Assembly (NCBI GenBank): GCA_044892525.1
Contig: CM097885.1
Span: 35,032,001-35,096,000 of the forward strand
Reading direction: 5' to 3'
From: Schmidtea polychroa
Lineage: Eukaryota
Length of the DNA stretch: 64,000 nt
A model generated the notes under the pieces. It was not told the origin of the DNA, made no database searches, and was given only the letters and a program-made list of their open reading frames with translations. This document shows positions 46,167 to 64,000 of this stretch, in pieces; position 1 is the first letter of the stretch, and every line of letters begins with the position of its first letter. A program made the position numbers and the translations under genes.

Positions 46167-46843
46167 CTTGGAATATCTTATATAAATATTATATGATAAT
46201 ATTTTACTATCAATGGTGAAAGATTTAACAGGAAGTCACAACTAACTGGTTATATATTTGACACCTGCAAATATAAAGGTTGTACTAAAAATTATTTTTA
46301 AAATATTGGTTTTGGTAGTTTAAGTTACTTATAAAGTTCTGCTTATAAATGTCTTTAAAAAATGGGGTTCCTTGAATTTGAAAATCTAGGAATGTTTATC
46401 AAAGTTACTGAATGGTATGCAAAAGTCTGATAAATAAAATATTTATATCCAAATCCAATTGTGTCTAATAAAATTAAACTCAAAACAAAACATTCTCAAC
46501 CGAGTGCCATGGGACTCGGGGGGACCACAAAGCAAAAACTCACATATTGAAAACTTTTAAATTTCATACCTTAATTTTGACAAAAGTATAACTTATTTCT
46601 TATTAATAATTTCTTATAAAGTATTTCTTGTATGGATTCAAACACATTTTCTTAGGTATGTATTATAAATACTTTCATCAATATCTAGTAATGAGGCACT
46701 TAGTTCTCTATGCCTCCCTTCAAGTGACGGGAACAGGGGAAAATATCTTACAGGTTGGTCAATGGTTGGGACCGTGGAATAATTTCGAGCTTAACAAAAT
46801 ACCACAGGATGACACAGATTGAGGAATACTGATAAACAATTTA

Positions 46844-46925
<82 letters not shown>

Positions 46926-47238
46926 ATTGTTTTTATTGGTAAAAAAGATTACGCAAATAAATCAAAACAATGAGATTTAAGATATTCCTGTCTGCAATGA
47001 ACAAGACTCATGAGATTTCCCAACAGTGGGCATCAATAATTAACCAACTAAACCAACCGATCTCAATAATGAACAGATAAATAAATATTTGACTTTAATA
47101 ATAAAAGATTTATTCAGAATGAAGAATAATTGTATGAACTCATCTAAAAAAATGTATTAAAATATTTATAACACTTGACAATTAAATCCTCTTATTAAAT
47201 AAAATAGGCTTCATTTGATATTTATTGATACAAAAAAT

Positions 47239-47352
<114 letters not shown>

Positions 47353-47589
47353 TACGTTAATATTGATAAAATTATTAAAAATTAATGCAAATCCAAAAAC
47401 TTGACACTAGTTAATTAATAAATTTCAAATAATATTAATTTCTTGATGATATTAAATAAAGAGAATAATAAATCAAATTACGGGTACCTTATCTGTTGTC
47501 AGTGATATGCAGATTAATGAGACAAAACCAATTATTTTATAAAATTATATATATTCAAGAAATTAATCAGTATTAATAATTTAATGGTG

Positions 47590-47663
<74 letters not shown>

Positions 47664-47729
47664 TATAATAATAATAGTACAATAATGATATACTTTCATT
47701 TTTCTGGATTTTTTTTAAAAACTTTACTT

Positions 47730-48266
47730 AAAATTAAAATTAAAATTAAAATAAAATAATTAAATAAATATCATTTAAAATTCAAAATGACAAAAACTAA
47801 AACCTTTAAATATTTTAAAGCTTCTATAATTAGCTTCTAGAAGCCTAATAAAATATTTCAAAATATTTTCAAATAAAGTCTCCAATAACCATTTATATAC
47901 GCTATTTAAATATTTCAATAAATGTGTCAATTTTGATTTTTAAATCCTATCTTTTGAAAGTATATTTCCTAAAATTTTCTATATTATTTTAATTATTACT
48001 TTAAATTTATAATATTTTTTATTTTTTATATATTATCAGATATTCTCAAGGTGAATGACAACAGACCAAATTCATGATTTCATTGATTTCTTCTTTAGTT
48101 TTGATTTTTGGCTGTCTGTTTATGATGAGAATTGCTTCTTTTAATCTGACATTTTTCTTTTGGATGTTTCCATTAGCTATGATTTCGATTGAAATATTTT
48201 TTCTTTCCTCTGTTGACTGACATTGTTGGAGGTGTCTGTTTATCGAGGATGTTCCACCAGGATCTA
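47730..48266 (-). mobile_element. Short 3' fragment of the Penelope-like family (endonuclease end + 3' UTR)
   Basis: DPGGTSSINRHLQQCQSTEERKNISIEII..KEAILIINRQPKI matches the 27.3-kb copy, and the downstream non-coding sequence is shared. Confidence 0.85.
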
Positions 48267-48284
48267 AATCTTTGCGTCTCCTGC

Positions 48285-48326
48285 ATATTACTGATGAGAG
48301 CCAAAAGCTCGAAACTAGTCTACTAT
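48285..48326 (+). ncRNA. Minimal type-I hammerhead ribozyme with a canonical core
   Basis: atatta-CTGATGA-gagc-caaaa-gctc-GAAA-ctag-TC-tactat: perfect stem II, palindromic stem III, stem I with one mismatch. Confidence 0.75.
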
Positions 48327-48639
48327 TGGGATTGGCACTGGGTATCACCAAGCTTGTACTGTTTATTTTATTGAAGTGAGACATCCGACAAAAAAATTTT
48401 ACACCATTACTTTATAAGTTAAAAATGCTAAAGGTAATCGGATGTACTTGTAAACAGTTTCTGTGTATCGACTAATTTTTTAGTCCGCTGAGGTGATTAT
48501 GATTTTTCATACGCCATGTTTACAAGTTTACAGATTTTTTCTATGACCAAGCTAATTTGCAAGTGATGTGATTTCCAGTGTACCGGGGAAAGTATGCAAT
48601 TGAGTTGAATCAGCAATATAAAATAACTTTATAAAATAA

Positions 48640-48722
<83 letters not shown>

Positions 48723-48726
48723 TAAT

Positions 48727-48796
<70 letters not shown>

Positions 48797-48941
48797 CAAT
48801 AAAATGATATAATTTAAGCCTCTTGTCAAGGACTATCTTATAGTCGAAAATCTTTTCATTAAATACATTATATGCAGCAAAAGGCTTAAATTATCATTTT
48901 ATTGTTTTAAATAATAAATGCTGCTAACAAGAAATCATCAC

Positions 48942-49132
<191 letters not shown>

Positions 49133-49377
49133 TACATTGAAAAATATTAACACGCAAATAAATTTGTAATATACCATGAAATCATATACAAATTTCACTA
49201 TAAGACCTTATAAAAATAAAATATTAAAAAGGGGACAAATGATTAAGTCCTACATATAGAAAAGCAAAAACAATTATTAGTAATGTAAGATCTGCTTATT
49301 TAAGGGTAAATGAAAATGCAATATGTAATTTCAATTTTTTATTATATTATTGGGTATTTATCATTTTCTCACATGTT

Positions 49378-49566: not shown

Positions 49567-49760
49567 CCCATGTTTTATTACAAATTCATTAATAATGTCA
49601 TCTTAACTTAAACTTTTGGCTGATTGAGACTTAATAGATAAAATGACTAAAAAGCTAAAACGTTCTTGACTAATAACTAATTTTCTTAAATAGCAATTTA
49701 CAGAAAAACATCAATTATTTTTGACTTTTGGAAAATCGTAGTTTTTTTACTTGAATCACG

Positions 49761-49976
49761 AGTAGTGTAGGAACCTAGCACTTGACCACTCACACCCCAC
49801 AGCTTCCAACTCCACAGCCCTCAATTATTACCCTTTAATGTAAAAAAATAACAGTTTTTTTAAACCTTTTAATCTTTTTAACCCCCAAATTCTAAAACAC
49901 TCACTCTAATAAAGGAGATGATGGAAGGGGAAAAAGGCGAAAGGCGAAAGGTCAAGTGCTAGGTTCCTACACTACT
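49761..49976. repeat. Left terminal unit bounded by a perfect 27-bp inverted repeat
   Basis: AGTAGTGTAGGAACCTAGCACTTGACC (49761-49787) and GGTCAAGTGCTAGGTTCCTACACTACT (49950-49976). Confidence 0.95.
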
Positions 49977-50059
49977 TGCAATCTGCGCAATTTGCTAATA
50001 TAAAAAATATTTTAAAAATTCTAAAACACCCCACTCCAATAAAAAAATATTTTTAAAAA

Positions 50060-53000
50060 ATGAATTGTGAAGTTTGTAAAAAAACTTTTAAAAATAAATC
50101 TGCACTAATGTCTCATCAAAGATCAAAGATTCATTTATTAAAAACCAATCAACTAAATAATACCAACTCGAAAATTTGTACAAAATGTAAACAAAGATTT
50201 TTAATTTCTGGATACGATCGACATTTTGAAAGTTGTATTGGTATTCCTGAAAATAGAAAAAAATTTGAATGTCCAATATGTAAAATAAAAATTACTACAG
50301 AATTTTATTTTAAAAAACATGTAAAAAAATGTACCATAGAAAATATAGTCCCAACTCCCAAAGAAGATGAAGAGGAAGTGTATGAAGAAGAACCTGAACA
50401 CATTGAAAAAGAAAAATATAATTGGGATGGTTTTAATCATATAGATTTATTTGAAGAAGCATTTCAAGATTCATCGGTCTCAGAATATGTAAAGAAAAAC
50501 AAACAAAATATAAAAAATTCAATGGAAGATGCTTTGGATAAATTTGGTAAATCAAGATTTAATGTTATAAAATATAAAGTTATAATCCAGGCAAGATATT
50601 GGAGAGGAGAAGAAGCAAATACAGTTCCTTTAATTTCTGATATTGAAACACCATATAAATATTTATATTCAACCAAAGGGGTTAAAAAAATTATTAAAGA
50701 AATAATTAAAGAGGCTCAAGAACAACAAGAACAAGCAGAACAAGAATTGAGGGAATCAGATTTAAGATTTCACTCCTTTCAAAATATGCAAATTATATAT
50801 TGGAGAGGGGCACCCCCTAACCCCAAATCATACATCCCTACACCTTTTCGTTCTAATTCTCTTGTAAACGTGGAAAATAGTGATAATAAATGTTTTCAAT
50901 GGTCAGTCCTTGCACATTTACATCCTCAAGCTACAAACCCTCAAAGAGTATCAAAATACAAACCCTATGAGGGTGAATTGATATATCCAAAAGAGTTTAA
51001 ACATCCAATGAAAATTTGTGATGTACCAAAATTTGAAAGTTTAAATAATATCAAAATTAATATTTATGAATATATACACCATAAACATGATGATTTTAAG
51101 AAACATATCATTCCAATATACATTTCAGATAAAGAATTATTAGAACAAGATAGAAATCGGGAAATAGATCTTTTAATATTAGAGGAAGACATTGAAACCC
51201 CCATAGAAGGGGATTTAAATATTGAAAACATACAAGAAGAAAATATTGAAAGAAAACAACACTATGTTCTCATAAAAAACTTTCAAGCTTTTATGAGATT
51301 AAAAACACAAGTCAGAGGGGGAATAACATGTAAAAGATGTCTTCATTATTCAACATCTCCATCTTCAATAATTAAACATGAAAGGTTGTGCAGTAAAAAC
51401 CAACCAGCTTTAATTAAAATGCCTTTACCTATAAACGCAAAGATGCTTTTTAAAAACTTTTCAAACCTACTAGAAACATAAGGAGTAATATATGGATACT
51501 TTGAAGCCATAAATATAAAACAGGATCTAGACCAAGAATATTTCAAACTAATAGAAAAAAATAATCTAAATCTACAAAATGGGAGGACATGAAAGCCCTT
51601 TTAAAATTAAATAATAAATCCTACACTGTAAAACTAACAAAACAAGTGGCATCGGCCTATAAATTATTTTTCAAAAGTAATTACCCCGAGATTATAAACT
51701 CTGAAGAATTTTCATTTAGAGGATCCTCGGAAGAAGAGGTTTTAAATCATTTTACTAAAGACATGAATGATTTGGAACATAAACATTTTAAAACCTTAAA
51801 AATAAAACATTTAATAAACTTTTCAGAACAACAATGGGAAGAATATGAAGATTGCACAACTTGCTGGATGTGCAAACAGCCATTTGAGGATCAACTCTTT
51901 GAGGATCAACTCTTTGAGAATCAACTCTTTGAGGATCAAGGTCTTCCAGAGTCTATTGAAGAAGAAGAACAAAGATTATTCCATGAGGGTCAAACTCAAA
52001 ACATAAAAGTTCCTGACCATGACCACTTTAAAAAAGAAAATAATTATAGGGGAGCAGCCCATAAAAATTGCAATATAAACTGTAAAAGACCTGCATTTAT
52101 ACCGGTTATATTTCATAATCTTTTTGGTTATGACATCCACCTATTTATAAAACATCTAGCTGTAAATGCTAAAAATTCCTTTAAAGTCATAGGACTTACA
52201 AAATAAAAATATAAATGTGTACAATATGGGTGTTTAAAATTTATAGATTCTCTAAACTTTTTACAAATGTCTCTAGATGGAATATCAAAAACCATGAAAC
52301 CTGAAGATTTTACATTTACAAGAGAAATATTAATAAAAAATAATATTCCAGAACATGAATTTCCAACCTGTTTCGCTAAAGGAATCTATCCTTATGATTA
52401 TATCAACTCTTTTGATTGTTATAATGAAACATCTTTACCAGAGAAAGACTTGTTTTTTTTCAAAATTAAATCAAGCGGGTATAACTGATCAAGAATATAC
52501 TCGAGCAAATAAAATGTGGGAACTTTTCAAATGTAAAAACATTGGGGATTATACTGACATGTATTTATCCCTTGATGTTTATATCCTTGCAGATTGTTTC
52601 GAAGGATTCACAAAAGCCTTTACTCTTAAACCCTATAATTATATATCTTCTCCATCTTTAGCTTGGGATATTTTATTATATACTGTATGGACCTCTTCTG
52701 TTCCAGAGGATATACACCTATTAATTGAAATCGACATGTTTAATATATTTAAAGAAAATATTCGTGGAGGTGTTAGCTCCGTGATGGGAGATCGAGAACT
52801 AACAGCAAACAACTTTATATCTCTCCACAAGAAATTCTTTAAAGAAGATGAAGATTATGTAGAAATAAAAACTAAACAGGATTTAAATTTAATAATGGAG
52901 GGTTTAAATAATCCATCTGAAATAATGTATATTGATGCAACCGCTCTATATTCGGGAATCATGACTCAATATCTTCCAATTGGAAACTTTGAAGTCTCCG

Positions 53001-54433
53001 AGGATGAAATCTCTAAAATTTTAAAAACTGAAAAGGATTCAGAATTTGGATATGTTATAGAATGTGATCTTGAATACCCAGATGATATAAAACCTTCAAC
53101 TAGATACTTTCCATTTGCACCAGTAAAAAGAAAAATAGATCCAAATGAACTTTTACCTTGGCAGATTGAACAAAATAGGCCTACAACCACAAAGTTTTTA
53201 TGTGATCAAACTGATTAAACCTATTATCTTTGTCATTATAGATTATTACAATTTTATCTTTCTCATGGAATGGTTTTAAAAAATGTTCACTCAATCATAA
53301 AGTTTAGACAACTTCCATTCATGAAAACCTTTATAGAGGGAAATATCAAATCTAGGAATGAAGCAAAAAGAAATGGAAACGCTTTCCTCGATATGATTTA
53401 TAAACTTTTAAATAATTCAGTCTTTGGAAAGACAATGGAAAATGTTGACAAATATACACGTGTGGAATTATTAACAAATAGTCCAAAGGATTTTGCAAGG
53501 TATAATCGAATGCTTGGAAAACCTACATTTAAAAATGCCCAAGTATTCTCCGAGAACCTTTTAGCCGTTGAACTTCAAAATAGTGAAAAGACTTATAACA
53601 AACCAATCTTTATAGGCTTTTCAATTTTAGAATTATCAAAACTTCAAATGTATGAAACCTATTATGATATCCTAGTGCCACATTTTAAAAATAGAATATC
53701 TATGCATGCAATGGATACCGACAGTATGTTTTTAAAAATATATAGTAAAAATGTGAAAAAAGAAATATCAGAAAATGAAACCCTAAGGAATGTAATAAAT
53801 TCATCTGGAGAATTATTCACCTTTAAAGATGAAAAACCAAACACCCCAATACTTGATGCTGTATTTATTAGATCTAAACAATATTCACTTGAAATGATTG
53901 AAGGAGTAAAGACTGAAACCCATTCAATAAAAATAGAAGAAAAGGATTATACATTTGAAAGACCTATAGTTGAAAAGGTTAAAACATCCAAGGAAAACAA
54001 AAGTAAAGGAATACAAAAATGCATATCAAAAAGATTAACACATCAAGATTATAAAGATTCTCTAAATAAAAATCATGTAGATAAAATAGTTGAAGTTCAT
54101 CAGCTTAAATCTGAGAGACATAACATGTATTTAGAAGAATCAAATAAAGTTGCAATATCAAATTATGATGATAAACGTTGTATACTAAGTAATTTGAAAA
54201 CAACACTTCCTATTGGGAATAATTTAATCCCGATAATAAAAAACTTGAAAAGATTAAATGACTTGTATGCCACAAACTTCACAGATGTCCAACTGAGTAA
54301 ACTTGAAATTATAAACTTAAAATATTTAAATACTAACCCTGATTACATTCAAAGCCTATCAGAAAAAGAATTTGAAGATCATAGATTGGAGATTAAAAGA
54401 TATGAACAGTCATCCATGAAGGAAAGTCTCTGA
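50060..54433 (+). pseudogene. polB: Protein-primed family B DNA polymerase with N-terminal zinc fingers and an endonuclease VII-like insert; disrupted
   Basis: DNKCFQWSVLA, VIYGYFEA (Exo I), DHDH..YRGAAHKNCN, FHNLFGYD (Exo II), KGIYPYDY, IRGG, YIDATALY, KLLNNSVFGK, DTDS; stops at 51479, 52204, 53216; frameshifts near 51585 and 52455. Confidence 0.93.
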
Positions 54434-54475
54434 AGGTCTCCGAAAGTCTCCGAAAGTCATTCTAGAATCTTAAAA

Positions 54476-54688
54476 ATGACTGAAATACCCTTAAAATCCA
54501 TTTTTGAAAACTTAAAGTCTTTGACAGATGACAAAATATTGATTGATATTATTAAAGCTTTGAATAAATTAAAAAACAAACCATCTGTTTCAATAATAAA
54601 AATCTTTTCTTTTATAGTTATAACATCTTTTTTATTTTCTCTTTTATTTTCTCTTGGTTTACCTTGGTTGAAAACTTTCTGGCTTTAA
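54476..54688 (+). CDS. Small protein with a C-terminal hydrophobic (TM-like) segment
   Basis: AAAAATG start like other element genes; IIKIFSFIVITSFLFSLLFSLGLPWL; overlaps the convergent ORF. Confidence 0.45.
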   Translation: MTEIPLKSIFENLKSLTDDKILIDIIKALNKLKNKPSVSIIKIFSFIVITSFLFSLLFSLGLPWLKTFWL

Positions 54689-54905
54689 TCTCTTTATGGA
54701 CTTCGTTCAACTGTTGTTTCAGAGTATCTCTTTCAGTCTCTATATCATTTATAATCCAAAGTAATACAGGCTCTCGAATGGCAAGTTGCACAGCGAGCAA
54801 GGCTTTATCCTCTAAAGATTTCTCATTATATTCTTTTAATGCAAGACTTGATTGCTTTTTAATAATAGGATTACTTTTTATCAAATTTAAATCACGTTCG
54901 TTCAT
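54618..54905 (-). CDS. Hypothetical coiled-coil protein
   Basis: 95-aa ORF in the gene-dense array; heptad-like C-terminal half. Confidence 0.55.
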   Translation of the reverse strand: MNERDLNLIKSNPIIKKQSSLALKEYNEKSLEDKALLAVQLAIREPVLLWIINDIETERDTLKQQLNEVHKEIKARKFSTKVNQEKIKEKIKKML

Positions 54906-54987
54906 TTATTAAAGCTTTTAAACATGATACTAGTTCGATCTAAAATATCTTCAACATCTTCAGTCGTAGAGACTTCTGTCCCAGAGG

Positions 54988-55347
54988 CTAAAGGATCTTT
55001 TTTTGCCTTTTATATTTCTTAGACTTGATGCATTGATGATTTTGTTGAAGTACATTAGTTGAACAATCATTACAATAAACACCCTTTTTCTCTATAGCCT
55101 TCTTCCCTTTGACCTTCGGACATTTACCTGTATGCCTATAAGGAGAATCAATTCCTAAATCTTTTCTAATTCTTCTCATTGTAGAATCTGAAGTACCAAT
55201 CATTTTACAAATTTGAGTTTGAGAAAAAGTAGGGTTTTCACTCTTTATTCTAGCAAATTCAAAAGCCTTCTCTTTTTGTTGAATCTTATTTAATATTAAA
55301 GGATCAATTATTGAAAGTTGTTCAATTTTTTTTATAAAGACATCCAT
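54988..55347 (-). CDS. Helix-turn-helix DNA-binding protein with a degenerate C-terminal zinc finger
   Basis: NPTFSQTQICKMIGTSDSTMRRIRKDLG; YCNDC..H. Confidence 0.7.
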   Translation of the reverse strand: MDVFIKKIEQLSIIDPLILNKIQQKEKAFEFARIKSENPTFSQTQICKMIGTSDSTMRRIRKDLGIDSPYRHTGKCPKVKGKKAIEKKGVYCNDCSTNVLQQNHQCIKSKKYKRQKKIL

Positions 55348-55403
55348 TTTTATATGTTTTATTTTCTAATCTTTGTTCCTCTATCCTTTAATCTTTTAAT
55401 CAG

Positions 55404-55607
55404 TTAGGGGAATAAAGCAAAATAATATTCTCCTCTAATTATTTGGTGTCGAGGTGATAAAGATTGAAATTTAGTTATTTTATTTAAATAATCACAATCA
55501 TTAATTCCTACAAGATAAAAGATGTAACACTTTTCACCTATTCTAATTTTATCCTCTAATGATAAACTTCTAAAATCATTCAACCTAGATTTCATTATTT
55601 CTTCCAT
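55404..55607 (-). CDS. Hypothetical protein with an internal repeat
   Basis: AAAAAATG start; FRSLSLEDKIRIGE is echoed by FQSLSPRHQIIRGE. Confidence 0.55.
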   Translation of the reverse strand: MEEIMKSRLNDFRSLSLEDKIRIGEKCYIFYLVGINDCDYLNKITKFQSLSPRHQIIRGEYYFALFP

Positions 55608-55640
55608 TTTTTAATTTAAAAATTATATAGTCTTACGAAG

Positions 55641-56222
55641 TTACGTCGAAGTCTTTAACCATTTCTCTCTATATTGTTTTTTAGAATATTCATCACCTTT
55701 AACCTTTGTAGTTTTCAACTTTATAACTTCATTTTTAATATCCCTTATTATTTGATTTGATTTCATTATTTCTTCATCTGTTAGGATTCCATCTTCCAAG
55801 GCTTTTAATTGAAATAAAAATAATTTTGATATCCCCAAGTCGATTGTCAAACAAACTTCACGATATAAACTTTTCTTTTTTGAAGTATAAGATAAAGAAA
55901 CTATTTCAGTCAAGAAAGAATCTGCAACAGAAATACTTCCAAGTATTACGGGTGCAAGAGTAACAACTGGTAAAGTTATAGGTAAAACAATTGTAAGTAT
56001 TGCAGATGAAAATCCTAAGGAGTAACCTATAATCTTTAAAGCTGTATTCCCTTTATTCCATCTTTTTTTAATTTTTTTATAATGCTTTAGTAAGTCTTGT
56101 AAATGTAAAGTTTCTGATTTAAATTCTTTCACTCTCATAACTTCAAGTTCTGTAGGAGCAGAAGGAGTCAATACTGGATATCGTACTATTGGACTTTGTA
56201 CTTCTGGACTTCGTACTTCCAT
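55641..56222 (-). CDS. Polinton/adintovirus membrane protein (hydrophobic hairpin, KAL.DG.L..EE motif) with N-terminal YPxL and PSAP
   Basis: YPVLTPSAP; IIGYSLGFSSAILTIVLPITLPVVTLAPVILGSISVA; KALEDGILTDEE. Confidence 0.75.
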   Translation of the reverse strand: MEVRSPEVQSPIVRYPVLTPSAPTELEVMRVKEFKSETLHLQDLLKHYKKIKKRWNKGNTALKIIGYSLGFSSAILTIVLPITLPVVTLAPVILGSISVADSFLTEIVSLSYTSKKKSLYREVCLTIDLGISKLFLFQLKALEDGILTDEEIMKSNQIIRDIKNEVIKLKTTKVKGDEYSKKQYREKWLKTST

Positions 56223-56230
56223 TTTAATAA

Positions 56231-57079
56231 TTAAAAAAATAAGACTTTATTATCTGGTACCAACGCTCGCATATCATAAGAAACTCTTTTTGAGAGAATG
56301 TCTTTATACAATTCTATCAACGCTTTACGAACTTCATCAACATCAACCTTTTTTTCATAAAATATTAAATCTATATAACTTACAAGTGTGCTTTTAAAAA
56401 TAATATTCTTACTTTTAACTTTATGTGTTTTATGTGAATCAGTTTTATCATGCCAATGTCCGTGTGGTAAATCATAACCAGTTATTATAACATCATCCTT
56501 TTCAAACTTACTATTATAATCACATTTTACAAACTATTTCATTGTTTCACCATCATCATTAAATAAAAAGAAATAAGGATCAATAATCTTTACAACCATA
56601 AAACAAGACCATTCTTTACTATTTGTTATTATTAAAGTTGGTTCTATAAAATGTTTATATCTATTGGGTAATAATGTATTATTCTGTTCTAATTCAGCAG
56701 CTCTTTTTCTAATAGTGTGTGTTGTGTTAATGTGTGTTGTATGAGACTCTAATTTAACAAGTCTTGCATTAAATGATGTAATCATCTCATTTATTATATT
56801 ATATATTGTATTAATTTTATTATCCATAAGTCTTTTATTAAGCTTGGATTCTATAGAATTACTCGATTTAAGAGACTTAAGATTTTCATCTACATATTTT
56901 TTATTAGTTGCATCAAAATCATTGATTGGAGGACCTAAATCTTTTATCTTGTGAGCATTTAAATTTAAATCTCCCTTCATTGAATCTCCTACTTCATTAA
57001 TAAATCTTTTTTCTGTAAGGTTTATAACATCTTCATCTTTTAATCCTTCATTAGATAATCCTAATTTATTATAATTCAT
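56231..57079 (-). pseudogene. Fibre/adhesin-like protein of ~282 codons with one in-frame TAG (56534-56536)
   Basis: GDSMKGDLNLNAHKIKDLGPPINDFDATNKKYVD fibre-type motif followed by a coiled coil; frame stays open for 100 codons after the TAG. Confidence 0.65.
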
Positions 57080-57088
57080 TTTTATAGT

Positions 57089-57816
57089 CTAAACTTGTTT
57101 CAAATGTAAACACATTGAAATCTTTTCTCCATTAAAATTAATTAATTCTCCATTTTCATCAACAATTCTAAAATGAATATCCATTAGGTTTTTCTTTCAA
57201 CCATTTTATATCCAACTCGAACAACATTGGAAGGAAAGGAATGTAAAATATTTGCATGTTTACCATTATTGTATGATCCCATTATACAATCACACTCTAT
57301 ATTTATAGAATTTATATTTGTTATTTGTATAATATTTTTAGATTTAATAGTTGATGGTAGATATCCTCCAACTTCAAAACCTAAAATAGTATGAAAGAAA
57401 CTAGAAGCATGAACATCAAGTTCAACATTTTTTAAAGTTGCAATACATTTTGAAGTTTGAATATCTACTTTTATTTCTACGGCTCCATTTATTTCTTTTA
57501 GAATTGCTTTAGCCAAATCTACTATTTCATATGATCCTGGTTCGATTGTTATAGTGTTGTATTCTTCAGTATTTATCATTGTCTTGGGGTTAATATACTT
57601 CTTAACTATAAGAAATTTATTATTATTAATATTTATATTAAAAATAGTATTAAAACAGCTAAACCACAAGAGTCCTAATTCATAATTTAAATTTTGATCT
57701 AAATTTATTGAATCTTCAAAATTTATACTAAAATCTGATTCATTTGAATTTATTAATAAACTTCTTGAATATTTATCTGACATTATGTTTACCATTTTTT
57801 TTAAATTATCTTCCAT
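57089..57816 (-). pseudogene. Minor capsid protein (penton, single jelly roll); frame broken near the C-terminus
   Basis: YELGL..NTIFNI..NNKF, TIEPGSYEI, INIECDCIMGSY..ILHSF; the C-terminal IHFRIVDENGELINFNGEKISMCLHLK lies in another frame. Confidence 0.8.
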
Positions 57817-57875
57817 TTTTATAATAGAGGTTTTAAATCATTATAAATTTCTTGGATTATAGATTCAAAGCCCTC

Positions 57876-58247
57876 TCATTTGGACGCATTCAATCTATAC
57901 AAAACATATAAACTTAAAATACCACATATTTTAGTATTATTAGGTTGAACTTGTAAAGAATTAAAGGTGTAGCCTTTTTCAAGATAGTCTTCTACTTCTT
58001 TAGTGGGTTTAATCCCAAAAGAATCAAAGTATATAGATTTATTATATATACAAACCCAATGAGATCCTTTTTCATTTGAATCTTGATAATTGATTATTAT
58101 ATTATCCTTTGGTCCTTTCAGACTTGACAATTCATCATTCATTAATATTTTATTTTTTAAATTTAAATAATTTTCATAATCTTTTAAATCAAAATTTGTT
58201 TTTACATTTATTCCAAATGTTTTTAAAAAATCTAATATACTAGTCAT
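57876..58247 (-). CDS. Adenain-like cysteine maturation protease
   Basis: GSHWVC, YFDSFG, QVQ..ICG: His-Asp-Gln-Cys in the adenain order. Confidence 0.9.
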   Translation of the reverse strand: MTSILDFLKTFGINVKTNFDLKDYENYLNLKNKILMNDELSSLKGPKDNIIINYQDSNEKGSHWVCIYNKSIYFDSFGIKPTKEVEDYLEKGYTFNSLQVQPNNTKICGILSLYVLYRLNASK

Positions 58248-59076
58248 TTGTATATTTATTAAATTTATCTTTTGAAATTATTCCTTGTTTTAATAATTCT
58301 TTAGAAATCTTTAAAATATCAGAATCTAAATTATTATGTCCTGCTTTTTTAGTTGCTAATAGTTTTCTCAATTCTATAAACTTAGAGATTGGATCTAGCC
58401 CCTCACCTTCTTTAACAATATAACCCCTTTCATTTTTATTTAAATAATTCTTTAAATCTTGAATATGTTTTGCTTTTGGACTACCACCTACTAATTTTAT
58501 AAAATTTAAATATTTTTCAATTTCTTTAATATCATCTGAAGGATATCCACAAATTAATCTATAAAAATCATCTCTAAATTCAAAGTCTAAATATTCATTA
58601 TTATAAACATTTTGTGAATGAATATGTGATTTATTTTCTGGAGTTATATATAAAGTAAAGTTTTGTTTATTAATTGTTATTATTTGATATCCTTCAGTAT
58701 TAGTATTAAATGTGGGTTTAATTGTTTCACTTAAACCCTCTCTAATTTTAGGATCAACTTTAAGAGGTTTTGTTTTTAAAAACATTTCTTCTTCTTCCAC
58801 ATTAGAGGTTCTTCTACGTTTTCCTTGATTTCTTTCGGCAGACTTTTCGGTATGCCACTCCAATTCTTTAGTCCTTGGACTCTGTCCTTCCAGCTCTTTA
58901 GTCCTTGGACTCTGTCCTTCTAATCCTTTTATAGCTTTAATTGTTGGTTGTTGTTTTTGTGTCATTTCTTCATTTGCTGTTATAGATTCACTATGTTGGG
59001 TTGTATCTTTTATATTATACTTATCTTGTTCTGATTGTAATTTTTTTAAAAGTGCTAATCTTTCTTCATATACCAT
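58240..59076 (-). CDS. Conserved Polinton-type protein of unknown function (likely virion-associated)
   Basis: C-terminal GEGLDP..ELRKLLATKKAGHNN..ILKISKELLKQGII motif; duplicated LEGQSPRTKE; start placed at TATAAAATG. Confidence 0.65.
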   Translation of the reverse strand: MVYEERLALLKKLQSEQDKYNIKDTTQHSESITANEEMTQKQQPTIKAIKGLEGQSPRTKELEGQSPRTKELEWHTEKSAERNQGKRRRTSNVEEEEMFLKTKPLKVDPKIREGLSETIKPTFNTNTEGYQIITINKQNFTLYITPENKSHIHSQNVYNNEYLDFEFRDDFYRLICGYPSDDIKEIEKYLNFIKLVGGSPKAKHIQDLKNYLNKNERGYIVKEGEGLDPISKFIELRKLLATKKAGHNNLDSDILKISKELLKQGIISKDKFNKYTND

Positions 59077-59077
59077 T

Positions 59078-59641
59078 TTATATACCATCAATGTACCATT
59101 CTTCTTCTTCTTCAGATTCTGATTCAAAAAGTTGTAAATATAAACCTTTACCATTTTTAAGTTTACAAAGGCATCCTTTCTTCAAAGATTTACACATTTT
59201 TTTAAAATCATCTTTATCTTTTGAAGATAAAGATTCAGATGTAGAAATTTGATTTTTTAAAAAATCATTTAAACCTCTACCTTTATATGGATCGAGATAT
59301 AAACCTCGACCTTTATAAGGATTGAGATATAAACCCTTACCCTTCTTTTTCATTGAATCGATTTCAGTTTGTAATTTTTCTTTTTCTAGGTCTGTCTTTT
59401 GAGATTCTTTAGCTTTTTGAACTGTATTTGCAATTCCTCCAGCTATTCCAGCAGCACCTGATAAACCTGCAATGATTGCAGGTATTAAAGCCATTAGGGG
59501 AAGAATGCCACCTTGCTTCATCTGTCTCTCTTTAACTTGTTCTTTTACATGTTTTCCAATAAAATATTTTTTACCATCAATTACAACTGATTTATTTTTA
59601 TTTGAATTTATTAATTCTTGTAAAGATTCTTCAGTTGTCAT
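59078..59641 (-). CDS. Core/membrane-active precursor protein (adenovirus pX/pVI-like organisation)
   Basis: KQGG|ILPLMALIPAIIAGLSGAAGIAGGIA and four G(K/R)GL repeats. Confidence 0.65.
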   Translation of the reverse strand: MTTEESLQELINSNKNKSVVIDGKKYFIGKHVKEQVKERQMKQGGILPLMALIPAIIAGLSGAAGIAGGIANTVQKAKESQKTDLEKEKLQTEIDSMKKKGKGLYLNPYKGRGLYLDPYKGRGLNDFLKNQISTSESLSSKDKDDFKKMCKSLKKGCLCKLKNGKGLYLQLFESESEEEEEWYIDGI

Positions 59642-59657
59642 TTTATAATAAATAAAA

Positions 59658-60441
59658 ATGGATACTTGGAAACCAATTTTAACTCGGCACAAGAGTAAAT
59701 TTAATAATAAATTATTTCCTGATAATTTTAGATTATTAATCGTTGGGTCTTCAGGATGTGGAAAGAATGTACTTCTTTTGAGAATATTACTAGAAGAATG
59801 TTTTTTAGATTATAATAATTTAATCTTTTATTCTACAACCATAAATCAACCAGAGTTACAACTTTTGAAATGTGGATTTGAAAATAAATTAACTAAAAAA
59901 GCTATAATTGATATTTTTAAAAATCAACATAGATGTCCTGACGAGGTTTTTCAACCTTTTGATATGATTGATTGGTATAAGGAAAAGATTTTAGAATCAG
60001 ATATTGATAATAAAAGTGATTACATTTCTGAGAATGAATGGATTAAAGTTTTATTCTCTAATAAACCTAAAGATGTTTTACATTGTGATTTACTTCCTAA
60101 AGATGTAAAGAATCTAGTTATATTCGATGATGTTGTTAATATGAAAAACCAAGAGATTCAAAATAGTTACTTTACACGAGGTCGACATAATAATTGTAAT
60201 GTTATTTATATTTCTCAAACTTATTATGCTTTAGATAAAAATTCAATAAGAAATAATTCCAATTGTTTTATATTTAAAATTAGAAAAGCGTGATAAGAAT
60301 ATGATTTATAGTGATTTATTTTCAAATGTTGAACCTGATAAGCAAATGTTTGATATGTTTGTAGATAATCATTGGAAAGAAAAATATAATTATATTTATT
60401 TGGATAGAGAAGAAGGAGAAATATGGAAATGTTTATTTTAG
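59658..60441 (+). pseudogene. A32/FtsK-HerA packaging ATPase, frameshifted near 60278
   Basis: Walker A GSSGCGKN, Walker B LVIFDD, RGRH..IYISQ; the C-terminus continues in another frame to TAG 60441. Confidence 0.9.
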
Positions 60442-61794
60442 AAATCTGTTTTCTGTAGTTCATTATTATAAAATCTACCTAATATTTTTTTCATTATTTA
60501 AATCAATGATGCTATATGTTATTGGAATTGTATAATGTATTTTATTTATAATAAAAATTTCATTTGTCCATTTTGCTGTGAATCCTTTTTCAAATTTATT
60601 TTTATATTTAAATATTCTTACTCGGTCACCAATTTTAAACTTTGGTTTTTCATTTACCACTTTAGCGGTTTCAGGATTTATAAGTTTTAAAGGATTCAAG
60701 GAAGCATTTAAAGGTGTTGATTTTATAGAACTATGTACATCATTATTATATTCATTTACAATCTTTTGTAACAATTCATTGTTCCATTTTTGTTTTCCAA
60801 TAGCAGTAAAATATTTCCACATTTTATTTTTTAATGTTCTATTTAATCTTTCAACTACAACTGCTTTTCCTTCATTTTCTGTTGAATATAATTTAATATC
60901 ATTTTCATTTAAAAACTTTGTAAAAACTTTGTTATAAAATTCTGTTCCTTTATCGCACCATAAATATTTTGGAATTCTTTGATGTTCTTCAAATATATTT
61001 TCAAATGCTTCTGTAATAGAATATCCTGTTTTGGTTTCTAAACATCTTGCAAAAGCAAATCTCGTATATAAATCTATTACTGTTAAAATTATTTTATATT
61101 TTTCAGGGTCTGATGATTTGGTTGGCATAAAGACTAAATCAGCAGACCAAGTATGATCTTTTTCATGTACTTGAACTTTTAAATATTTTTTATTTTTTCT
61201 AAATTCATGGTGTAATTCGTTGGCATATTTTATTTGTGATTCTGTTGGGGTTTTTTAATTTGTAGAATCAAGGGTGTGATTCTCAATATCTGCTTGTTCA
61301 ATAATCTTTTTATTAGCAACATCTTTTGCTATTCTAGGAAGTCCTGCTCCAAAGAAGATCTTACCTTTCATTGCTAATTTAACTAGAGCTCTTTGAATCT
61401 TTTCTTGGGTTGATGGGTTTTGAATACTATTTAAATCATGTATTAAATTAACATCTGCAAGATGTCTATCCCTAAGGTCTTCAGAATAATAAGCAATATC
61501 ATGTTTTAAAGCTGCTTGATCAATTCTATTCACTGGTTCTTCTCCAGGTTTGGGATTATTATTTTCATCTAATCTAAGGTCTAGACGTGTTCCTGGTCCA
61601 GTATAGTTGTGATGGAATAAATGTCTTTCACCTGGATATTTTTCAGTAGTAAAGGGTTTTAATATTGAAGATGTTGTTTTTGAAGATTGAAGGTCTCCTC
61701 CCACTCGAGATGTATGTTTTTTAGTTTTAACATGACTTGCTTTATGATGTTTTCTAACTTGACAATTACAAATTTCACATTTTCAATAAGACAT
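60438..61794 (-). pseudogene. Zinc finger-phospholipase A2-retroviral-like DDE integrase, in one reading frame
   Basis: ATG 61794, CEIC..H..H; NYTGPGT..DQAALKHDIAY (parvovirus VP1u-type PLA2); ELH..WSADL..WCDKGTEF..VERLNRTLK; stops at codon 4 and 61255-61257; frameshift near 60485. Confidence 0.88.
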
Positions 61795-61810
61795 TTTTAA
61801 AAGTTAAAAA

Positions 61811-63082
61811 CTATGAATCGCCTCGTACATTTTCAATTATTGAAATCTTTCCACCATATAATTTCATTTCTATTTTCTTTTCTTCTAATATTAATGTATA
61901 TATTTTTGCTTTAAAATTAGAATTCTTTGTTATATGAAGTGTAACATCAACATTATTTATAGCTAGACGATCGTCTTGATCTGATACATTTATACAAAAT
62001 ATAGAATATAAATTTTTGAAATCTTCTAAACTTAATTGTGGTTCAACTTTAAAATCATAACATGTTTCAATATAATTTAGATATGGGAATATGTTTTCAT
62101 TATTTTCAATATTAAATTCCATTCTATTTATTGGATAATAAGAACTATTTAATTGAATTTGTATTGATTTTAAATTATCATCTCCAATCTTTTGAATAAA
62201 CAAGTTGTTATTTTTTTGGAAAGATGAATCTACTTCTTTGAATCCAATCAAGATATATCTTGGTCGGTATGCTAAATTTGCTACCTTTATAGAATATGTT
62301 GAACCCTCTGTCATACTAAATTCACTACAGACTCTATTTAAATAATTTACATTTATAGATTTGTTGGAATTTAATCTTTCAAGGAGTTTAATTTCAGATT
62401 GAGGATTTAAAGTGCATTCAGGTATATGTAATTCAAGTGTTGATAATTTTAATTTAGCTTTTGTATCTACACCTCCATAGAACAATTTCTTATCACCTTC
62501 TAGTCTATTACAGGTTAATTTTATAAAAACATTATGAAGTATACGATTATAGTTTTGAAGGAATCCAAATAAGTGTTTTAATTCAAAATAACCTTCAAAT
62601 TTTTTAGATTTATAAAGTTCAACTCTTTTATAATAACCATAATTTATATCTAAACCATCTTTATCTAAATCTCCTTTATTAGTATCAGGAATCCAACCTG
62701 TTAATTCACCATATTCATTTTTATAATCACAACCAGTTAAAATAAAATTTAACATTGTAGAATATACTCCTGGATGTAAAACAGTTTCAATTTCTGATGA
62801 TCCTAGTTTTAATCTCATGTTGGAGAATAAATTTGGAAAGAAATTATTTTCTAGGGTTATATCTTTGTTTGCTTCAATTTCTAATTCAATTTTATAATAT
62901 AATTTAGCATTACAAATATCTATTGGGTTTGATGTTTGAAGAGATTGAAAAACTATATCTCCCCTACGATTTAAGTTTGCAATAGATCCCGAGGTTGGAG
63001 AGATTTTTAAAATATCAATTTTTTTAATTTCATGCATAAATTCTTTATTGTAATCAAGATTTAATTTATTTTTATTACTCAT
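61811..63082 (-). CDS. Major capsid protein (double jelly roll), intact 423 aa
   Basis: LENNFFPNLFSNMRLKLGSSEIE, LKHLFGF, RPRYILIGF, YPINRMEFN, YSIFCINVS; size and position match Polinton MCP. Confidence 0.85.
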   Translation of the reverse strand: MSNKNKLNLDYNKEFMHEIKKIDILKISPTSGSIANLNRRGDIVFQSLQTSNPIDICNAKLYYKIELEIEANKDITLENNFFPNLFSNMRLKLGSSEIETVLHPGVYSTMLNFILTGCDYKNEYGELTGWIPDTNKGDLDKDGLDINYGYYKRVELYKSKKFEGYFELKHLFGFLQNYNRILHNVFIKLTCNRLEGDKKLFYGGVDTKAKLKLSTLELHIPECTLNPQSEIKLLERLNSNKSINVNYLNRVCSEFSMTEGSTYSIKVANLAYRPRYILIGFKEVDSSFQKNNNLFIQKIGDDNLKSIQIQLNSSYYPINRMEFNIENNENIFPYLNYIETCYDFKVEPQLSLEDFKNLYSIFCINVSDQDDRLAINNVDVTLHITKNSNFKAKIYTLILEEKKIEMKLYGGKISIIENVRGDS

Positions 63083-63143
63083 TTTTTATATTACTAAATT
63101 AGCAATTGCGCAGCTTGCTAGTTTTTAAGATTTAAAATTTTTA

Positions 63144-63773
63144 GAATTTTATAAATATAAAATTTTAAAAAATGACAAAAATCCGAACCCTAATAGCGCA
63201 GTGGGAATAGACTGGCACAGTGGTTCAAATGGATAGTGGTTCCCAACTGACATTATTTTTTTTCAACATAAAATAATATTAAAAATTTGAAAATAATTTT
63301 TGAAAATAATTTTGAAAATAGTGTGGGTATCTTGTATATTTTATTTTTTTATTAATTAATTAATTTTTAAACATAAATATGAAAAAAAAATTATTGAAAC
63401 GGGTGTGGTGGCGAACCGGTAATTATCGCCACCAGTCTTTCGAACACACCCGGATCGATCCCATAATGTGCACATTTATTTCTCAGTTGTTTTCGGACCT
63501 CTTTCGGATTCGCTTTCGAATTTATTTGTACTTTCGAGCAGCACGCTTAAAACAAAGAAGCGAATAATAAGGTGTGCTGCTATTATCAAATTGATTCTGA
63601 TGTATGAGTCTGGCCAGCTTGTATGTTGGAAGAGATTTGATAAACGAAAGAGGTTGAAATTGATCCGGATCAAAAAACTGTTGAGAGGACAGTGAAAAAA
63701 AAACAAATACTCTCAGTCCTCTCAGAGCAGTTTTACTATTTCATAAATTTTTTTATTCTTCAAGGCATCAAGA
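63144..63773. other. ~630-bp segment flanked by a perfect 19-bp direct repeat (probable secondary insertion)
   Basis: TTAAGATTTAAAATTTTTA at 63125-63143 and 63774-63792. Confidence 0.55.
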
Positions 63774-63803
63774 TTAAGATTTAAAATTTTTATAGTTTTT
63801 TAT

Positions 63804-64000
63804 AGTAGTGGATGTATGGCCTTCACGGACGTAACCTTTTTCCGCGGTTCCCTGTCAAGGGGATGGGGGGATTACAGATTTGGGTTGGTAAATTAGGGGT
63901 TTTTATGAATAAAAGATGTAAAAATAAAGGGTTAAAAAGATGGAAATGTTTAAAATTTATTAGGTTTTGAGACGGGCGTCCGAGGGTGGGTTGGGTCCGT
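63804..64000. repeat. Probable right terminal unit, truncated by the window edge
   Basis: Begins AGTAGTGGATGTATGGCCTTCACGGAC; the window ends GTCCGT, the first 6 nt of its reverse complement; the interior mirrors the left unit (GGGTTAAAAAGAT..GTTTAAAA, CCTTTTTCC). Confidence 0.7.

Follow-up and report, generated by a model that had tools for sequence, protein, structure and literature searches.

Self-complementary Polinton ends in Schmidtea polychroa, and a rare copy whose two ends do not match

Can a Polinton whose two ends do not match still replicate and insert, and what are its ends for? The question is raised by a stretch of 64,000 nucleotides from Schmidtea polychroa, called the window below (C1:35032001-35096000, on contig CM097885.1 of the 781-Mb assembly GCA_044892525.1), which contains a single Polinton insertion of 14,261 bp flanked by a 6-bp target-site duplication (TSD). 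Polintons, and the racket model of Kapitonov and Jurka for their replication, are understood here as described in the available text of PMC4196379. The standard model requires a long stem between matching ends, and this genome presents two things that must be reconciled with it: a conserved inner copy of the terminal tip, and natural insertions with unlike ends. Both the general end design and the rare trapped hybrid are real.

The boundaries of the window copy are set by three features.

49755 to 49760, no strand: left copy of the TSD, ATCACG; the right copy lies 22-27 bases beyond the window end
49761 to 49976, plus strand: left end unit of 216 bp, arm class L1, with outer arm 49761-49787, a 162-bp loop and inner inverted arm 49950-49976
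63804 to 64000 and on to 64021 (21 bases past the window), plus strand: right end unit of 218 bp, arm class R, with inner arm 63804-63830 and outer arm 63995-64021

A sequence-only reading of the window had proposed that both ends are self-complementary, and the arms indeed pair at 27 of 27 positions in each unit. The same reading predicted how the right unit, which runs past the window, would be completed. The bases past 64000 are GAAGGCCATACATCCACTACT, giving the predicted 218 bp, and they are followed directly by the predicted ATCACG, identical to the 6 bp preceding 49761 and thus a TSD of the kind that defines Polintons/Mavericks. The termini, AGTAGT...ACTACT, likewise have the 5'-AG...CT-3' form of the group. 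Each arm sequence is confined to its own end of the element, and both units fold as DNA better than any of 200 shuffles (z -7.6 for the left and -8.5 for the right). Compared with one another, the units show 55% identity when gaps are counted and 62% when they are not, and their outer arms are alike at 13 of 27 positions. Both align in register with other Polinton ends, and by sequence they are best described as diverged homologues, each a homologous terminal inverted repeat (TIR) of a sister family. The mirror-image blocks that had been noticed in the unit interiors are present, but because the units align in register, these blocks are remnants of common ancestry.

The nested inverted arms had been treated as an oddity of this locus; they are genuine, but they are general to Polinton ends in this genome. 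A genome-wide search for the pattern AGTAGTG-gap-CACTACT gave 257 matches (84 in the control) at spans of 204-234 bp and 2255 (76 in the control) at spans of 235-264 bp, or about 2,400 end units above background, and class-specific arm patterns gave 90, 77, 17, 33 and 1749 matches with a control count of 0 for each. Pattern searches favour units with both arms, and gene-anchored samples were therefore added. Among loci found through the polymerase gene, a unit was present at 30 of 30 (the window included, the remainder mostly of one class); among loci found through the capsid gene, a whole unit was seen at 8 of 30, most of the others having an end at or beyond the 1.5-kb flank, or none that was seen. 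The self-complementary unit is the normal Polinton end in this genome, and matched TIRs extend 0-166 bp beyond the inner arm. The number of units implies roughly a thousand or more Polinton copies, with two end families dominant; of 101 capsid matches scored, 99 were without a stop.

The design is not limited to this genome, to judge from a distant metagenomic Polinton (locus L217, capsid 35% identical to query P0011), whose 150-bp unit starts AGTAGT and has 21-bp arms. It is the one locus with a unit among the 24 found in an alignment-based metagenome scan, most of which were too short to reach an end. No relative was found by a single-protein metagenome scan or by capsid searches of viral contigs. 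Downstream of its end unit, L217 carries a decayed third arm (222-243) inside a short direct duplication.

Could the units simply be separate miniature inverted-repeat transposable elements (MITEs), or the locus a misassembly? We find these explanations scarcely credible. The whole element is spanned by no contig among the Logan contigs of the public runs checked, yet the TSD matches across 14 kb, and the left flank-to-unit junction, the one examined, is bridged without differences by Logan contigs in three of the four runs (all from one study, the best-matching run being possibly the source sample). The case for MITEs draws on four TSD-flanked mini-Polintons of 158-310 bp that belong to other families (L320:1501-1658, L329:1501-1675, L333:1501-1732 and L401:1271-1580). 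These single-copy minis, four in 253 units, look like deletion derivatives: two consist of two outer half-ends fused together (one of them a 91% palindrome), one of 310 bp joins a full unit to a left tip of only about 14 bp and still has a TSD, one has a right half that for the most part matches no family, and none is a clean excised unit. They also suggest that the integrase may need little beyond the tip. In the first catalogue, which holds 199 units (73 rows paired by TSD, 70 of them exactly and three with one mismatch, and 54 units unpaired), not one unit is flanked by a TSD of its own, and no direct repeat flanks the left unit of the window alone at 49761-49976. The independent mobilisation of end units envisaged earlier thus finds no counterpart among these units, and unrelated MITEs at the ends are ruled out, the units being terminal, oriented and tied to a polymerase clade.

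The second question is whether unlike ends are also a family design, as the sequence-only reading supposed. They are not: most copies match. After removal of three duplicate rows, the TSD-paired rows represent 70 insertions, a sample enriched by the search for unpaired ends. With gaps ignored, 59 of these have ends at least 96% identical, four fall at 90-94% and five at 77-86%, and two are cross-class pairs at 62-64%. The long matching TIR pair of canonical Polintons is therefore seen in 59 of 70 independent copies of the family, against 55% identity (with gaps) in the window copy. The two cross-class insertions are the window copy and C3:120672037-120687108 (TSD GTCCAG), in which the L1 end lies on the capsid side, opposite to its place in the window. 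An unselected list, the first 100 of 1749 oriented units (C1 0-41 Mb; TSD checked in 5 of 32 pairs), contains one cross-class pair in 32, compared with 10.4 under free assortment, a soft null; this hybrid, C1:6493452-6508347, also has a perfect TSD. Among TSD-bounded copies with the window's right-end type, the left end is non-matching in four of four. Overall, mismatched ends are a rare exception, accounting for a few per cent of copies.

How did these exceptions arise? For both ends of each of the ten L/R-class elements with the greatest mismatch among those examined, a twin of 88-100% identity exists elsewhere, often in a matched copy, so that the mismatch is attributable to recombination rather than decay. 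The window copy itself is a mosaic, about 75% identical to R-family copies over its first 1.4 kb and mostly 94-100% in its last 1 kb. It is very probably a recombinant of two end families that was inserted in one piece, before its ends had been re-matched; a chimera of two families, which had been named beforehand as the case that would overturn the earlier interpretation, is thus what the window copy is. In principle, an already integrated element could instead have had one end exchanged in place, with the TSD kept, through ectopic gene conversion or template switching. About a thousand or more homologous donor copies are at hand, and the 21-27-bp outer arm common to the R class could anchor such an event. 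However, the three cross-family cases, which are independent, have perfect 6-bp TSDs and intact arms, although contiguous identity at their termini extends over just 7 bases (13-14 of 27 positions in all), and we judge replacement after integration improbable.

What, then, is the inner arm for? The most direct evidence comes from comparison of the two arms within 182 distinct units (one unrelated match and exact duplicates having been dropped). A unit's own outer and inner arms agree at 0.92-1.00 for positions 1-26, at 0.70 for position 27 and at 0.07 for position 28. The inner arm retains the exact terminal bases 1-7, and positions 8-27 are highly variable between arm classes, of which there are at least a dozen types, with the outer and inner arms shifting together across types. 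The same concerted change is seen within families: position 10 of class R changes in both arms together in 86 of 89 cases (38 expected if independent), and positions 11 and 22 of class L2 covary in 73 of 75 each (51 expected), counts that include relatives and so overstate the number of events. The arms are copied in concert over about 26 bp. Because both alleles occur within one family and nevertheless change in concert, physical copying between the arms is required. The simplest route to such copying would be single-stranded pairing of the terminal arm with its inner counterpart, and the covariation thus points to local snap-back pairing of each end, lending support to the fold-back proposed from the window alone. 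Predicted energies fit such pairing in the window copy: end-to-end pairing of its units is put at -46 kcal/mol, compared with about -283 for matched copies, and self-pairing of its arms at about -35.

Fold-back ends also suggest parvovirus-like hairpins that prime their own synthesis and are resolved by nicking, giving flip and flop loops. The geometry should allow a folded 3' end to prime synthesis, and the accessible part of preprint 10.64898/2026.07.28.741278 proposes this for the tight terminal palindromes of protist virophages. The flip-flop ends entertained at first are not seen here, however. Loop orientation is fixed in these integrated copies, none of the 73 TSD-paired rows fitting better with the loop flipped, as the parvovirus or adeno-associated virus type would have it; 78 of 79 TSD-defined ends carry their C-rich side outermost; none of 253 units lies at the centre of a palindrome; and the element encodes a protein-primed polymerase. 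We regard hairpin priming as very improbable.

The relation of the ends to the genes beside them provides a further line of evidence, for which four features are needed.

49985 to 49998, plus strand: short box just inside the left unit, a candidate promoter and swap point
50060 to 54433, plus strand: protein-primed polymerase region by Pfam (PF12874, PF03175), its 5' part of the L clade
61811 to 63082, minus strand: double jelly-roll major capsid protein, 423 amino acids, open (PF21738, E 1e-25)
63099 to 63121, minus strand: another copy of the short box, within the leader of the capsid gene

On a polymerase tree of 93 stretches, the L or R end label needs two changes, one of which is a nested-element artefact (an element read twice), against a shuffled mean of 30. 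On a capsid tree of 64 stretches it needs seven, and a single R clade is rejected (approximately unbiased test, p 0.0004). The end class is tied to the polymerase N-terminus and not to the capsid gene, even though several discordant copies have no more than 39-75 bp between unit and capsid start. The short box, a candidate promoter and swap point, occurs in similar form ahead of both the polymerase and the capsid genes, in L- and in R-ended copies. If re-matching of hybrids works by overwriting the capsid-side end with the polymerase-side one, a direction that the two trees suggest, the junction found at C1:267.57 Mb, where an L1 unit is joined at the short box to a window-like capsid leader, is the product that would be expected. 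A direct repeat of about 25 bp is also shared by the loop of the left unit (49888-49918) and the polymerase leader (50016-50045).

These associations can be read in another way. The arms might be an inverted pair of binding sites on duplex DNA, for the integrase or for the zinc-finger N-terminus of the polymerase, with pairing and copying as a side effect; the polymerase would read its own arm class, and hybrids would be dead ends. Arm class does track the polymerase N-terminal clade almost perfectly, that N-terminal region begins with a C2H2 finger, hybrids are rare and single-copy, and one protein on two inverted sites would explain much of the conservation with no snap-back at all. It would not readily explain why both alleles occur at several arm positions within one polymerase clade and change in both arms, nor why terminal bases 1-7 are preserved exactly in the inner arm, and close linkage also contributes to the association between arm class and polymerase. 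We consider binding sites of this kind a serious but rather unlikely explanation.

The mechanism that we propose would begin with a displaced single strand, in which the terminal arm would pair with the inner arm about 160 nucleotides away to form a short local panhandle. With this structure in place, protein priming would again have a duplex origin, and repair of the tip would have a template. Where two Polinton genomes replicate together, crossing over within their shared core would then generate genomes with unlike ends, and if the integrase requires little past the shared AGTAGTG tip, some of these hybrids would be inserted unchanged. Most others would presumably be re-matched, the polymerase-side end being copied onto the capsid side at the box inside the unit. 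We lean, by a little, towards a functional snap-back (as duplex origin or for tip repair) combined with a recombinant origin of the window copy. More tentative, and to our minds somewhat doubtful, is the wider proposal of a widespread Polinton group with autonomous snap-back telomeres, in which ends need not match and are swappable modules that travel with a cognate polymerase N-terminus, the polymerase-side end is the master, and hybrids are trapped intermediates.

Besides the bias of the pattern searches and the inflated covariation counts mentioned above, several points weigh against a functional snap-back. The evidence comes from integrated copies only, with no folded or free DNA observed. 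In one large family the arms match perfectly over just 15-21 bp, which is shorter than the adenovirus panhandle of about 31 bp. The hybrids demonstrate that integration tolerates unlike ends but not that replication does, and their low number (one pair where free assortment gives 10.4) is in keeping with replication still requiring matched ends. Comparison of polymerase ends and of similar hybrids revealed no amplified hybrid lineage: no copy is closer than 88% to the window polymerase 5' end among the 40 scored of 1904 candidates, and two hybrids whose ends are similar proved to be mosaics rather than clones, so that there is no sign that hybrids have multiplied. Finally, no parent with L1 at both ends was found among the five L1 units, two of which are in hybrids and three of which lack a partner end in the stretches read (two of these three being one duplicated locus).

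The remaining features of the window copy are as follows.

57184 to 57816, minus strand: probable minor capsid protein, from position only, with no significant Pfam match
57876 to 58247, minus strand: probable maturation cysteine protease, with no Pfam match above the cut-off
59078 to 59641, minus strand: small core-like protein with a weak match to adenovirus protein X (PF05829, E 3e-4), below the cut-off
59658 to 60293, plus strand: A32-like packaging ATPase (PF04665, E 1e-9)
60475 to 61128, minus strand: open reading frame (ORF) of a retroviral-type (rve) integrase (PF00665, E 2.5e-9)
63141 to 63773, no strand: spacer of about 630 bp from the capsid leader to the right end, bracketed by a direct repeat of about 17 bp, with no ORF longer than 62 amino acids

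The Pfam search covered 15 ORFs, and identifies the polymerase as a protein-primed family B enzyme (PF03175, E 7e-8, on 53270-54433). The window copy is a decayed Polinton, since its polymerase gene is split into four ORFs. A PDB search with the N-terminal polymerase ORF gave weak zinc-finger matches only. No ORF among the 15 matched an adenain-like protease or a minor capsid family above the cut-off; 57876 to 58247 is a candidate for the maturation protease from its motif. The spacer is mostly 94-100% identical in other copies with the window's right end. The distance from unit to capsid start ranges from 31 to more than 1,300 bp among copies, which suggests that the spacer is an insertion hot spot. 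No RNA run was listed as carrying the element.

Other arrangements were observed in passing. The copies L083 and L084 (C1:13755888 and C1:13774853) have matching ends and lack a TSD, their outer flanks being inverted copies of each other. Nested Polintons occur at L079-L080 (C1:40.65 Mb) and L050 (C3:80.96-80.99 Mb), and among them is an L1-ended copy, located in a polymerase gene, that in turn contains a deleted copy of 4.2 kb with 167-bp units. In the host flank of the window, long TAA/TTA microsatellite runs (46790-49150) produce spurious poly-isoleucine ORFs and repeat matches.

Polinton replication has, to our knowledge, not been reconstituted so far, and the hybrid and nested ends provide concrete substrates for a biochemical test. 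Through the insertions with unlike ends, the requirements of integration, apparently little more than the tip, can be told apart from those that replication may have. In this genome at least a dozen arm classes, spread over roughly a thousand or more copies, share one gene pool, which amounts to a natural experiment on both origin-polymerase specificity and the repair of ends. There is also a practical consequence, in that TIR-based annotation will miss hybrid copies and end units may be misread as MITEs.

How do these ends compare with known systems? Spaced nested arms or unlike Polinton ends were not found described in the literature consulted, although Repbase Reports, subscription papers and preprint supplements may contain them; the accessible portions of PMC12368964, PMC8502044 and PMC11296320 do not describe such an end design. 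The elements are otherwise ordinary Polintons/Mavericks (polintoviruses, adintoviruses), with a protein-primed family B polymerase (pPolB), rve integrase, A32 ATPase, double jelly-roll capsid, 6-bp TSD, AGTAGT termini and a length of about 14 kb, and most copies have matching TIRs of about 200-300 bp. They differ in that the terminal 15-33 bp of each TIR recur in inverted orientation about 160 nucleotides further in, and the few per cent of copies with unlike ends could not form the long stem of the racket model.

Casposons are also self-synthesising transposons, some with internal TIR palindromes, but they are prokaryotic and use a Cas1 integrase, and the text available from PMC4046053 does not present their palindromes as duplicates of the terminus. 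Adenovirus and phage PRD1 resemble Polintons in having protein-primed linear genomes for which inverted-repeat pairing has been proposed. According to the part of PMC11886824 that we could consult, their displaced strand is thought to pair through the inverted repeats, with the ends re-matched, and direct evidence for panhandles is still lacking. The pairing there is between two distant ends, whereas here each end has a local partner arm, a pairing predicted from folding energies and covariation. The telomeres of Streptomyces are likewise termini of terminal-protein-capped replicons that fold on themselves; those described in the accessible sections of PMC8743542 are about 150 bp long and show compensatory changes, and a title cited there reports chimeric chromosomes formed by crossover with a linear plasmid. 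They differ in having several short palindromes, in serving end patching after replication from an internal origin, and in being bacterial, with no integrase.

The nearest description found, within the available text of 10.64898/2026.07.28.741278, is that of the Halocafeteria virophages and Polinton-like viruses, which have tight palindromes at the tips of their TIRs (52 nucleotides in the example given, in a screen that allowed a gap of at most 10) with a proposed role in replication. Like the ends described here, these are self-complementary TIR tips in integrating, Polinton-related viruses. There the palindromes are linked to replication other than by pPolB; here the arms are about 110-260 nucleotides apart, belong to elements with pPolB, and are never flipped.

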